Part shown: in pieces, positions 1-2,870 of the stretch | Numbering within the stretch: position 1 is the stretch's first letter | How the letters are laid out: the number at the start of each line of letters is the position of its first letter | Assembly (NCBI GenBank): GCA_947494115.1 | Contig: CANLTT010000001.1 | Coordinates: 192-64,191, forward strand | DNA length: 64,000 nt | Direction of reading: 5' to 3' | Source of the DNA: Candidatus Caenarcanales bacterium | Lineage (GTDB): Bacteria; Cyanobacteriota; Vampirovibrionia; Caenarcaniphilales; Caenarcanaceae | Notes under the pieces: generated by a model | What the model saw: only the letters and a program-made list of their open reading frames with translations | Databases searched by the model: none | Told to the model about the DNA's origin: nothing | Position numbers and translations under genes: made by a program

Positions 1-1
1 T

Positions 2-1111
2 GAGTGGGGCGAATACAAACTAGGTGATTTGTTTGAGATTAATCCTACAAAATATTACAAATTATCAAATGAAGAAATAATTTCAGAAACTGGAAAAGTT
101 GCTCTGATTTCAAATTCTTCAATAAATAATGGAGTGATGGGGTTTTCTAATTTAGAGCCAAATAATCAAGGAAATACGATAACTTGTTCTGATACGACTC
201 TTGGAGCGGACACAATGTATTATCAAGAAAAAGATTTTATTGGTTATTCGCATATTCAACATTTCGTACCAAAATTCAATCCCTTCAATAGAGCTATTGC
301 AAGCATAATAATTTCAGTTTGCCGAGTTTCTACATCTAAAAAATATGATTACGGAAACAAATTCAATCGAGACTCAATGAATAATACAAAAATACAACTG
401 CCGACCAAAAACGGACAAATAGATTTTGACTTTATGGAAAAATTTATAGCGGAGCTGGAGGCTGAAAGAATAGCGGAGCTGGAGGCTGAAAGAATAGCGG
501 AGCTGGAGGCTTATTTATTAGCTACTGGGCTTAAAGATTATACTTTAACTGAAAAAGAGAAAATGACTTTAGAACAGTTTGAGAGCGGTAATTTTGAGTG
601 GGATATTTTCAATTTAGAAAAACTATTTGGAAAATCAACTCGTGGCAAACGACTAAAAAGTGGTGATAGAATTTCTGGTAATTTGCCTTTTGTTACAGCG
701 GGAGAGGCAGATGAAGGAATTTCAGCATTTATTGGAAATGAAGTAGAGATTTTTTCAGAAAATACAACAACTATTGATATGTTCGGTTCTGCAAAATACA
801 GAAATTACAAATACGGCGGAGATGACCATGTTGCGATAGTTCACACAGAAAAATTACCTAAATTTGCTTCTATTTTTATAACAACTGCAATTCATAAAAC
901 TTCTTATGCTGGTCAATTCAGTTATTCAAGAAATTTTTATGCTAAAGACGCTGATGAATTGAATATTTCCCTCCCAGTCCAAAATAACCAACCCGATTAT
1001 GAATTTATGGAAAGTTTTATTTCTGCTATTCAAAAACTAGTTATAGAAGATGTTGTGCTTTATGCGGACAGAAAGATTAACGCAACGAAGGAAGTTGTAC
1101 AAAAAAGCTAG
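2..1111 (+). CDS. hsdS: Type I restriction-modification specificity subunit HsdS, 5'-truncated by the window edge
   Basis: The frame opens with EWGEYKLGDLFEI, the typical start of an HsdS target-recognition domain. A second TRD start (W-DIFNLEKLFGK) follows a central helical region made of ELEAERIAELEAERIAELEA repeats. A C-terminal conserved helix (FISAIQKLVIEDVV) is present. No in-frame stop occurs before position 1. Confidence 0.75.
   Translation, partial: EWGEYKLGDLFEINPTKYYKLSNEEIISETGKVALISNSSINNGVMGFSNLEPNNQGNTITCSDTTLGADTMYYQEKDFIGYSHIQHFVPKFNPFNRAIASIIISVCRVSTSKKYDYGNKFNRDSMNNTKIQLPTKNGQIDFDFMEKFIAELEAERIAELEAERIAELEAYLLATGLKDYTLTEKEKMTLEQFESGNFEWDIFNLEKLFGKSTRGKRLKSGDRISGNLPFVTAGEADEGISAFIGNEVEIFSENTTTIDMFGSAKYRNYKYGGDDHVAIVHTEKLPKFASIFITTAIHKTSYAGQFSYSRNFYAKDADELNISLPVQNNQPDYEFMESFISAIQKLVIEDVVLYADRKINATKEVVQKS
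446..511. repeat. In-frame 24-bp tandem repeat (about 2.7 copies of atagcggagctggaggctgaaaga) encoding (IAELEAER)n in the HsdS central conserved region
   Basis: Direct reading of the sequence: two perfect 24-bp units plus an 18-bp partial third unit. Confidence 0.9.
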
Positions 1112-1269
1112 AGGAACGATTTAAAAATAACAGATTGAGAGAACTATTTTTTGATTTAAATTTCAAAATAAGGGTACAATTAAATTACCAGACCTCTCAA
1201 GGCTATGTTGTAAATTTTATTTACATTATCCTAAACCCGAGAGGTATTTTTTTGTAGATTTCTTTTCTA

Positions 1270-2160
1270 ATGCTCTCTGAATATACAAAATCTTTTAAGA
1301 CCTATAAAGAACAAATTCAGCTCCTCAAATCCAGAGGAATGATTTTTAATGATGAAAATAAAGCTGAAAATATTTTAGAACATATTAATTATTATAGATT
1401 AAGCGGCTATTGGCTACCTTTTGAAGAAGATCATACAACACATAAATTTAAACCAAATACAAAGTTTGAAAGTGTTTTAGAGCTTTATAATTTTGACCAA
1501 AAGCTCAGGCTTTGCTTATTATCAGCAATTGAAAAAATCGAGGTTTCTATTAGATCACATTTTACATATCAACTAGCAAAAGAATATGGTTCACACCCTC
1601 ATTTAGACAGTAAAAATTTTAGGAACTTTGAATATTGGAAAAAAGATAAAGAAAAATTACAACAAGAAATTACTCGATCTGACGAAATATTTATAAAACA
1701 CCATAGAAAATCTTACAGAGAAGAACTTCCGCCAATTTGGTCTACGTGTGAAGTTATGACTATTGGACTACTTTCAAGATTCTACTCTAATTTAGAATCA
1801 GTTGATGTAAGGAAGTCTATAGCTAAAGCCTACAAAATTAGACCAGACATTTTAAATTTCTGGCTTAAAAATTTGAGATTAATTCGTAATTATTCCGCTC
1901 ATCATTGTAGACTTTGGGACAGGCTCTTTAAAGATAAAATAGAACCGTGCAATACAGATAATTTAAAAAATCAACTTATTCCAAATTCCCAAGCAATTTA
2001 CAATTCATTAGTTATTTTACTTTATTTAATAGGCATTATTTTACCAAATGATTCATTTAGAGATGAACTTAAAGGCTTACTTCTAAAGAATAAACAAAAT
2101 CTTTTACAAATGGGGTTTCCTGATAATTGGACTGATCAAACCATTTGGAAAACAATTTAA
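1270..2160 (+). CDS. Abortive infection protein, Abi_2 (AbiD/AbiF) family
   Basis: Carries the hallmark Abi_2 motifs YYRLSGYWLPF, PPIWSTCEVMTIGLLSRFY and LRLIRNYSAHHCRLWD. It sits immediately downstream of hsdS. Confidence 0.8.
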   Translation: MLSEYTKSFKTYKEQIQLLKSRGMIFNDENKAENILEHINYYRLSGYWLPFEEDHTTHKFKPNTKFESVLELYNFDQKLRLCLLSAIEKIEVSIRSHFTYQLAKEYGSHPHLDSKNFRNFEYWKKDKEKLQQEITRSDEIFIKHHRKSYREELPPIWSTCEVMTIGLLSRFYSNLESVDVRKSIAKAYKIRPDILNFWLKNLRLIRNYSAHHCRLWDRLFKDKIEPCNTDNLKNQLIPNSQAIYNSLVILLYLIGIILPNDSFRDELKGLLLKNKQNLLQMGFPDNWTDQTIWKTI

Positions 2161-2167
2161 GTTAGTT

Positions 2168-2808
2168 TGAAGTTGATCCGATTTAGGAGACAAACTTTTT
2201 AGAGATATGGTGATACTCCTCGAATTGAAGAGGGGACAGATAATTCAAGGTTGAATGCTTTCTTTCCCGATTATAGAAAATCTCTATGTATTCAAATATA
2301 CCCAATTTGGCCTCCTTTCTCGAAATAAAATTTTTATGATTAATAAATTCAGTTTTAATTTTCCCGAAAAAGCTCTCGGCAACAGCATTGTCATAGCAAT
2401 TACCCTTTGCACTCACTGACAGCCCAACCAACTACCTTTCTTGAAAACAAATCAATTACGGTCGCTAAATAAAGCCAACCCTCGGCAGTTGGAATATAAA
2501 TTATATCGCCTACCCAAACCTGATTTAGAGCTTCTGTGTGAAAGTTCTGATTGAGCAAATTAGGGCAAATTGGTAATGAATGCTTTGAGTATGAATAATT
2601 CGTATTTTAGATTGGAGTATTTTATCTTTCTTCTTCCTTTCTGAGACTGGGTTTTACAGCCATTTATAATATTTGCTTCTACTCAATTCAAACACCTCAC
2701 ACATACTAGATACCCTGAATTGATGAGTATTTTGCTGAATAAATTCGTACTTTACTTGGCGTGCTTTGCAAAGTACTGACTTGCCTTTTTTAGATCGGAT
2801 CAACTCCA
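2168..2808. mobile_element. IS3-family insertion sequence remnant, internally deleted to about 640 bp, with imperfect 15-bp terminal inverted repeats (tgaagttgatccgat / atcggatcaactcca, TG...CA ends)
   Basis: The terminal inverted repeat matches 14 of 15 positions, read directly from the sequence. The repeats enclose transposase C-terminal fragments. The element lies between the abi stop and the SLT start. Confidence 0.6.
2183..2600 (-). pseudogene. IS3-family transposase (OrfB, rve integrase core) fragments, frameshifted and internally deleted
   Basis: Minus-strand translation gives NQVWVGDIIYIPTAEGWLYLATVIDLFSRKVVGW. A frameshift then leads into KGNCYDNAVAESFFGKIKTEF...YNRERKHSTLNYLSPLQFE. 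The roughly 70 aa normally separating VVGW from GNCYDN are missing. Confidence 0.8.
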
Positions 2809-2870
2809 TGATAGAACCAAACCACTAAGGGGTATTAAGAGTTTACCCTTTATTTAAACGTTAATAATTA

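Follow-up and report, generated by a model that had tools for sequence, protein, structure and literature searches.

We analyzed a 64,000-nucleotide stretch of contig CANLTT010000001.1 from Candidatus Caenarcanales bacterium (GenBank assembly GCA_947494115.1, positions 192 to 64,191 of the forward strand; hereafter the window), which opens with a gene for the specificity (S) subunit of a restriction-modification (R-M) system. A 24-nt in-frame tandem repeat lies in the part of this gene that encodes the helix joining the two target recognition domains (TRDs) of the protein, and we found that its copy number differs between alleles carried on otherwise identical or nearly identical DNA. The S subunit and its partner, a fused restriction and modification (RM) protein, are assigned here to the BcgI-like Type IIB enzymes. 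By analogy with Type IC enzymes, we lean towards the view that the number of repeats in this helix resets the gap of the two-part DNA target. The junction between the two genes further suggests that S is probably made as an RM-S fusion, through a conserved programmed -1 frameshift at the last codons of the RM gene.

Tandem Repeats Finder reported the repeat at window positions 446-511 (2.8 copies, 100% matches, no indels, score 132) with the unit ATAGCGGAGCTGGAGGCTGAAAGA. On direct reading, which agrees with the 24-bp in-frame repeat described in the earlier note, this length-variable element consists on the forward strand of 2.75 identical copies (446-469, 470-493 and a partial copy at 494-511) and is in frame with the open reading frame (ORF) of S, in which it encodes residues 149-170 (IAELEAER IAELEAER IAELEA). 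The copies had been described as near-identical; they are real, and that wording was too weak, as they do not differ at all. Within the 64-kb window, a search for the unit with up to three mismatches returned full positions at 446 and 470 only, and 100 dinucleotide-preserving shuffles gave 0 matches to the unit.

The S ORF occupies positions 2..1111 of the forward strand, with its stop codon at 1109-1111. It is open from window base 2, and the window edge truncates its 5′ end approximately 12 codons past the junction between the RM and S genes. Its identity as a BcgI-like Type IIB specificity subunit is supported by matches to the Pfam family Methylase_S, by homology to the S subunit of Sau42I and by Foldseek comparisons. 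The Methylase_S match falls in two stretches (E = 3e-23), the first of which covers residues 1-162. In an AlphaFold2 (AF2) model built with 34 homologues, the predicted order is TRD1, a first connecting helix (CR1), a loop with a short helix, TRD2, and a C-terminal helix (CR2). TRD1 comprises residues 1-141 (positions 2..424), as delimited by the first Methylase_S stretch and the AF2 secondary structure, and is followed by CR1 (residues 142-175, positions 425..526), which reads DFDFMEKF-(IAELEAER)2-IAELEA-YLLATG and is predicted as a single unbroken helix of 34 residues (predicted local distance difference test score [pLDDT] for the block, 79-90). The repeat lies wholly within this predicted helix. 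A short helix at residues 184-195 (551..586) forms the linker to TRD2 (residues 196-332, positions 587..997; second Methylase_S stretch and AF2 model), and the protein ends with CR2, a predicted C-terminal helix of 36 residues (333-368, positions 998..1105); all of these features are on the forward strand.

Foldseek matched the S model to specificity-subunit folds from M. genitalium (1ydx), M. jannaschii (1yf2), 5ybb_D, EcoR124I (7bst_A) and BsaXI (8w0p_C), each with a probability of 1.0 and with low TM-scores. Searches of the S sequence against solved structures and NCBIfam gave no matches. The classical Type I trait of two TRDs alternating with two conserved helices is present in S. The two-TRD specificity subunit proposed from the letters alone is thus borne out by the two Methylase_S stretches and the HsdS-type folds, and so is the placement of the repeat in the helix that joins the TRDs.

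Copy-number variation could be seen in the closest relatives of the window. Contig L001 aligns with window positions 1-2270 with 1 mismatch over 2246 aligned bases and a single 24-nt gap, which leaves 1.75 copies, and contig L084 aligns with positions 354-2270 with 0 mismatches over 1893 aligned bases and again a single 24-nt gap, to the same 1.75 copies. These contigs come from two samples of one European Nucleotide Archive (ENA) metagenome series. Both stop at window position 2270, inside a region resembling an insertion sequence (IS), as would be expected at a repeated element. The same series holds an allele with 3.75 copies (L087) and another in which 2.75 copies are joined to a different TRD1 (P0242). 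At positions 2024-3141 of L087, the two TRD types occur in reverse order and a stop codon splits the S gene after CR1. At positions 1-140 of L085 there is another TRD1, and similarity to the window begins inside the array; from this sequence, the repeat region appears to be a crossover point for TRD exchange.

It is very improbable that the difference between the window and the near-identical contigs is an assembly artefact, produced by the collapse or expansion of a tandem repeat in a de Bruijn graph. The close comparisons all involve short-read metagenome assemblies, and repeats did break these assemblies, as the ends of L001 and L084 at position 2270 beside an IS fragment indicate. However, the array is only 66 nt long and shorter than one read, 1.75 copies were found in two independent samples while 2.75 (P0242) and 3.75 (L087) copies occur elsewhere in the series, and the polymorphism is also present in complete isolate genomes of Aliarcobacter, Microcystis and Flavobacterium psychrophilum, on contigs of 2.1-5.1 Mb.

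At the species level, a cluster of Aliarcobacter cryaerophilus proteins (90% identity) includes alleles with 0.75 (354 aa), 1.75 (362 aa) and 2.75 copies (370 aa), and a near-identical relative of this cluster (P0016, 378 aa) has 3.75 copies. Microcystis aeruginosa and F. psychrophilum each carry both 1.75-copy and 2.75-copy alleles. Examples are WP_002793360.1 (1.75) and ARI81714.1 (2.75) for M. aeruginosa, AIN74231.1 (1.75) and WP_071948515.1 (2.75) for F. psychrophilum, and NCB11766.1-type (0.75), WP_260953455.1 (1.75), P0250-type (2.75), WPD02518.1 and WP_390838948.1 (both 3.75) and WNL17539.1 (a 7-residue variant) for A. cryaerophilus. In the 120 best homologues, 0.75, 1.75, 2.75 and 3.75 copies were counted in 1, 90, 27 and 1 proteins, respectively, and the species-level loci that could be parsed had 0.75 copies in 3 cases, 1.75 in 45 and 2.75 in 15. 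The copy number had been put forward in the earlier note as a candidate for variation, to be checked in related strains. That check found 1.75 against 2.75 copies on otherwise identical DNA and the full range of 0.75-3.75 in A. cryaerophilus and its near-identical relative; copy number is therefore not fixed, in an ORF that does encode an S subunit. Scans of JGI metagenomes gave no matches either to the window flanks around 1.75-2.75 copies or to a degenerate pattern for at least 3.75 copies.

The sequence of the unit varies by lineage (AELEAERI, AELEAEHL, AELSAQRV, AELEAQRV, AELEARHI, SQLEACRL and others) but does not vary within a protein. Of the 11 species in which both full units encode the same eight residues, 10 have units that are also identical at the DNA level (24/24), and synonymous codons differ between species. 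Since identity within species is combined with codon differences between them, the duplications are, on this evidence, recurrent and recent. A comparable pattern is seen at the 1.75-copy loci, where the shared 15 nt match at 14.7/15 positions within a locus, as against 12.6/15 between loci that encode the same peptide; such within-locus identity is the mark of arrays that have expanded and contracted repeatedly or undergone gene conversion. Four species have kept the length of three units that have diverged from one another, which suggests that the 2.75 state can be long-lived and is presumably functional, because the length was kept after the units had diverged. The tetrads IAEL and EAER were never duplicated singly in the data seen. 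In one protein (P0247, 369 aa, from Aliarcobacter cryaerophilus / Arcobacter sp. AZ-2023), two normal units flank a 7-residue one, AELEAER, that lacks the next Leu, so changes do not always involve whole 24-nt units. Slippage and unequal recombination are both candidate sources of copy change, and the sequence does not tell them apart.

The base composition of the array differs from that of its gene, with a G+C content of 56% as compared to 33%, and its codons GCG, GAG and CTG are minority choices for their amino acids across the S gene. In low-GC hosts with decayed, non-identical repeats (e.g., L005 and L007), AT-rich codons occur at the equivalent positions. Selection on the DNA may explain the GC-rich array, as may a recent event of transfer or recombination that involved the central region. 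The resemblance of GCTGGAGG in the unit to the E. coli Chi site was considered and dropped, as it is one mismatch off and other lineages do not conserve it. Across the 64 kb of the window, no Rfam family reached threshold, and no tRNA, rRNA or riboswitch was detected.

To place the S gene in its system, we compared related loci from a scan of one genome per species, which yielded 80 loci in many phyla whose S proteins share 50-77% identity with that of the window. In nearly all of these species-level loci, S directly follows a gene for an RM protein of 619-708 aa (approximately 675 aa). The Pfam N6_Mtase domain of this protein accounts for residues ~340-600 only. Its N-terminal third contains the motif KPDF-x8-IPV(I/L)IE(N/D)K, that is, PD-X12-ExK, which is invariant in 25 aligned RM proteins and aligns with KPEF..LVVEDK in the RM protein of Sau42I, the R-M locus of phage phi-42 (X94423.1). 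The catalytic motif of BcgI is PE-X12-ExK (PMC9159934). In pairwise BLASTP comparisons, residues 30-662 of the RM protein align with Sau42I RM (E = 1e-62), and the window S aligns over its full length with Sau42I S (28% identity, E = 8e-43). A tblastn search of the RM protein against annotated phage records matched 91-94% of its length to the phi-42 (Sau42I) locus and to a gene annotated as “bcgIA protein”. Relatives in the databases are annotated as “bcgIA/bcgIB”, and the Microcystis member as “putative protein BcgIB”. BcgI and Sau42I are systems in which an RM fusion is paired with a Type-I-like S subunit (PMC2853133; PMC3874165). The AF2 model of the RM protein is poor (pLDDT 45.6), and the nuclease assignment is made from the motif and from Sau42I homology; the RM protein is accordingly described as a PD-(D/E)xK nuclease, predicted as such, fused to an N6-adenine methyltransferase.

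No conserved ORF of HsdR size was found beside the RM-S pair within 8 kb in the 80 species. Large ORFs near the pair were considered as HsdR candidates and rejected, as Pfam searches of the eight largest identified housekeeping genes, namely ValRS, RpoC, Tex, an Lhr helicase, an MCP, a histidine kinase, a cyanophycin synthetase and a DUF5686 protein. In one locus (L031), RM and S stand alone between housekeeping genes as a bare two-gene island. The partner also differs from the classical Type I HsdM, a nuclease-free protein of ~500 residues, in its size (619-708 residues) and its N-terminal PD-X12-ExK motif. In the window itself, no HsdR is found downstream of S; the upstream side in the window's strain is covered by 455 nt of L001 only. 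The last 140 codons of the gene upstream of S in this strain, read from L001, are 63% identical to the C-terminus of the RM protein P0121, which identifies it by sequence as the same RM. We conclude that the module is a predicted two-gene BcgI-like Type IIB system (RM + S) rather than an EcoR124-like Type I system, because both proteins are full-length homologues of those of Sau42I, the partner is an RM fusion and no HsdR was found. The suggestion in the earlier note of a Type I system such as EcoR124I/II or EcoDXXI is contradicted by the same three lines of evidence in the loci checked. The logic of its idea is left intact by the Type IIB label, since Type IIB S subunits share the TRD1-CR1-TRD2-CR2 plan.

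Control of the target gap by repeat number is textbook knowledge for Type IC enzymes. In EcoR124I/II, two copies of a 12-nt repeat encoding TAEL give the target GAA N6 RTCG and three copies give GAA N7 RTCG, engineered Type IC hybrids behave as predicted, and the change arises by unequal crossing-over in the first helix (PMC3874165). Because of this TAEL precedent, we think it somewhat more probable than the contrary that the repeat number of CR1 has the same effect here. The S subunit supplies two TRDs, held apart by the long helices CR1 and CR2. The repeat units make up most of CR1, and each 8-residue unit consists of two TAEL-like tetrads, IAEL and EAER, with Ala-Glu recurring every four residues. 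Since the units are identical in DNA sequence, misalignment in replication or unequal recombination can add or remove whole units while the reading frame is kept. In the alleles found, CR1 measures ~18, 26, 34 or 42 residues with 0.75, 1.75, 2.75 or 3.75 copies. Each added unit would shift and rotate TRD2 relative to TRD1, such that the half-sites are kept and the number of unspecified bases between them changes, with an expected step of about +2 bp per unit from the Type IC rule of four residues per bp. By our own estimate, the net helix rotation of one unit (8 x 100 degrees = 80 degrees net) agrees with the 72 degrees for 2 bp; the rise (~12 Å per unit as compared to 6.8 Å for 2 bp) agrees less well. 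The specificities of methylation and of double-sided cleavage would change together, and lineages would gain new self/non-self labels without new recognition domains.

Several observations weigh against this reading. In BsaXI, half-subunits of TRD1-CR1 with deletions of up to 32 residues in CR1 left the N5 gap unchanged and lowered activity (PMC9159934), and the rule that helix length equals gap is therefore not safe for Type IIB enzymes. No recognition sequence was found for any allele, and the link between copy number and gap rests on analogy. CR2 does not keep step with CR1, and a CR1 of 18-42 residues beside a CR2 of 36 leaves the geometry of a CR1/CR2 coiled coil uncertain; moreover, the 8-residue unit matches no coiled-coil periodicity. 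Confidence in the S model is moderate (pLDDT 77.7; predicted template modelling score, 0.58). The extreme copy numbers (0.75 and 3.75) are rare and may be inactive. Assembly errors are possible in principle for copy differences in short-read data, although the array is shorter than a read and four independent contigs are in agreement. Our searches, which included Microcystis and BcgI, found no methylome or REBASE data tying copy number to a motif. For strain THC 02-90, a methylome paper on F. psychrophilum describes several bipartite motifs whose gaps are N5 and N6, which are not assignable to this system.

The BsaXI result bears most directly on an alternative that we regard as doubtful, in which the length polymorphism is tolerated with specificity unchanged: CR1 would be a strut, the gap would be fixed by the docking of the TRDs on two RM subunits, and copy number would drift owing to the mutational instability of identical repeats. 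The unchanged N5 gap after CR1 deletions in BsaXI is what such a strut predicts (PMC9159934), although that work trimmed the free end of a half-subunit and not the link between two TRDs of one chain. We also considered CR2 as a possible compensator of CR1 length and rejected this idea, since CR2 is unchanged across the classes: in every CR1 copy class, the stretch between the first residue of CR2 and the end of the protein has a median length of 36-37 residues. This constancy again favours a tolerated polymorphism, as does the flexible loop and short helix after CR1, which could absorb changes in length. The huge tetrad ranges in Xylella (0.75-11.75) and Mycoplasma, which cannot all give usable gaps, point the same way. 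On the other hand, a comparable insertion in Type IC enzymes changes the gap exactly as predicted, hybrids included (PMC3874165), and free drift does not describe the distribution of alleles, in which most proteins have 1.75 or 2.75 copies and diverged units still retain the 2.75 length.

The rarity of the extreme classes, at 1/120 each, is relevant to a further alternative, which we consider unlikely: copy number would tune activity and leave specificity alone, with one or two states active and the others weakening or abolishing DNA binding, as a reversible damping of restriction or of self-toxicity. Neisseria gonorrhoeae Type IC mutants without the tetrad repeats lose R-M activity, as cited in a Xylella preprint, and CR1 deletions in BsaXI reduce activity. 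The absence of matches in the JGI metagenome scan for at least 3.75 copies and the occurrence of the 3.75-copy allele of L087 in an S gene interrupted by a stop codon would fit this alternative as well. However, both common states are found in intact genes of many species, the 2.75 state lasts until its units diverge, which argues for function, and a 24-nt unit present in two to three copies would be a slow switch in comparison with homopolymer tracts. We retain a change of target gap as the reading that we favour.

The junction between the RM and S genes was compared in 78 loci (alignment A3), namely L001 at positions 400-476 and 77 other loci. The 3′ end of the RM gene reads ...N NG GGA AAR TAR, and the heptamer G GGA AAA or G GGA AAG is present in 75 of the 78 loci; the remaining three (L023, L066 and L074) have A AAA AAG or A AAA AAA, which are also canonical. 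When the aligned sequences were read by eye, the RM stop codon was found directly after the heptamer in 75/78 loci and 1-4 codons further on in the other three, with the heptamer kept. S lies in the -1 frame in all 78 loci and continues as the conserved peptide G-K-I/V-D-A-S-L-N-E-K-L-x-x-V-E/K-W-G-E. In 40 of the 78, no canonical start codon occurs between this peptide and the S-frame stop that precedes it, and in L001 neither ATG, GTG nor TTG is found where the conserved N-terminus of S is encoded. The S-frame stop falls immediately before the heptamer in four loci and one or two codons upstream in many more.

An 11-bp hairpin follows the heptamer after a 6-nt spacer, with 95.5% of alignment cells paired, as compared to 35-51% when the 3′ partners were slid. 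Four of its pairs are changed on both sides, and one pair occurs as C-G in 27 loci, U-A in 26 and U-G in 18, with no C-A. In the actinobacterial locus L036, three consecutive compensatory pairs were read by eye in the sequence. RNAalifold independently gave the same stem (mean minimum free energy, -19 kcal/mol). A Shine-Dalgarno (SD)-like GAGG lies within 15 nt (about 10 nt) upstream of the heptamer in 44/78 loci, and no Rfam match was obtained for the RM/S junction region. The hairpin corresponds to A3 columns 29-39 paired with 55-65, or to L001 positions 428-438 paired with 454-464. As window base 1 is L001 base 456, only the last 9 nt of the conserved 3′ arm fall within the window (1..9, forward strand), and the rest of the putative -1 frameshift cassette lies upstream.

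The classic dnaX layout combines an X XXY YYZ heptamer with an upstream SD-like element and a downstream hairpin. The RM/S junction resembles it in the heptamer, the SD-like GAGG and the stable hairpin 6 nt downstream. Whereas the dnaX-type shift truncates its protein, the RM/S shift, which is known here from sequence, would extend RM into a whole second gene. Consistent with the probable synthesis of S as an RM-S fusion, one relative (P0216, 871 aa) is an in-frame RM-S fusion whose junction, ...LGKVDTLLNEK, equals the predicted product of the -1 shift; it is encoded on a short contig, where a sequencing error is possible. Another protein (P0210, 893 aa), also from a short contig with the same possibility of a sequencing error, has RM fused directly to CR1-TRD2-CR2, a half S without TRD1. 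In Sau42I and its relative, the heptamer is missing and the S gene has an ordinary ATG. Together, RM from normal termination and RM-S from frameshifting would supply the proportion of two RM to one S that BcgI-like enzymes have. In a BcgI-like system of H. pylori, S was reported to have no start codon, which was read as inactivity (PMC3936762). On programmed frameshifting in R-M systems, the literature that we searched, whose coverage is incomplete, contained nothing relevant.

Cleavage by Type IIB enzymes occurs on either side of the site, at fixed positions. Taken together, the junction and the repeat raise the tentative picture, less secure than either of its parts, of a widespread, self-diversifying, semi-single-chain Type IIB subfamily in which S would be made only as frameshifted RM-S and CR1 would act as a ruler with a fixed gap step per unit. 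The allele series of 0.75-3.75 units would provide a direct test bed for the connecting helix as a molecular ruler. If the picture is correct, it would offer a simple route to cutters with the same half-sites and different gaps, and near-clonal strains could become mutually restricting through the gain or loss of 24 bases. It would also be the first case known to us of programmed frameshifting setting the subunit stoichiometry of a restriction enzyme, and the frameshift cassette would explain S genes that seemingly lack a start codon, as in H. pylori (PMC3936762).

Downstream of S, the window carries an Abi_2 (abortive-infection-like) gene at 1270..2160 on the forward strand (Pfam Abi_2, E = 3.4e-56). 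In other species it does not belong to the R-M module, and the loci there have different neighbours. In Chryseobacterium (L009, 9419-11984), an AbiV HEPN gene and then GmrSD are found 3′ of S. These differences in downstream neighbours, Abi_2 in one locus and AbiV HEPN with GmrSD in the other, place the RM-S pair in variable defence islands. The minus strand at window positions 2183-2809 contains three short ORFs (82, 52 and 51 aa) that, judged by eye, resemble pieces of an IS3-family transposase.

Among characterized systems, the Type IC enzymes EcoR124I, EcoR124II and EcoDXXI resemble the window S in having an in-frame repeat in the first TRD-joining helix whose copy number varies alone, and TAEL of EcoR124 shares its four-residue Ala-Glu periodicity with IAEL and EAER. 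The EcoR124-type unit has 12 nt encoding four residues, and each tetrad changes the gap by 1 bp, whereas the unit described here has 24 nt encoding eight residues in two non-identical tetrads. EcoR124 is Type I, while the present system is Type IIB, with an RM fusion plus S and no HsdR found, and EcoR124I HsdS has no detectable sequence similarity to the window S (no PDB sequence match). The Type IC helix tetrads TAEL, LEAT, SEAL and TSEL are all known to vary; the window array departs from the 12-nt tetrad unit of these and of LEAE, as its unit is 24 nt and eight residues long.

BcgI, which we compared by description, and Sau42I, with which the sequence alignments were made, share with the present system the order of RM then S, the N-terminal PD/E-X12-ExK nuclease joined to an N6A methyltransferase, and an S subunit with two TRDs. 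Unlike that of the window S, the central region of Sau42I S is short and contains no AELEA repeats. The Sau42I S gene also differs in that no slippery heptamer is present and an ATG of its own overlaps the tail of RM. BsaXI, known from cryo-EM (8w0p), is an (RM)2S complex in which S is arranged as TRD1-CR1-TRD2-CR2; the fold of this S matches the window model (Foldseek, E = 5.5e-8), although no similarity was detected at the sequence level and BsaXI S is larger, at 475 residues.

The HsdS arrays of Xylella fastidiosa (LEAE) and Mycoplasma pneumoniae (ELSA/TELS) come close to the present case in the natural copy polymorphism of in-frame repeats in the dimerisation helix of the S subunit among otherwise identical alleles, including fractional “0.75” states. 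They differ in having 12-nt units, in belonging to Type I and in their far larger copy ranges, and their effect on the recognized motif is likewise mostly inferred. The literature searched contained no description of repeat-number variation in BcgI-like enzymes or of an 8-residue unit, and nothing relevant on the peptide AELEAER and its variants. Relative to the Type I precedents, what is new here is the Type IIB class of the enzyme, the double-tetrad unit of 24 nt, and the spread of the array over many phyla with recurrent, independent duplications.

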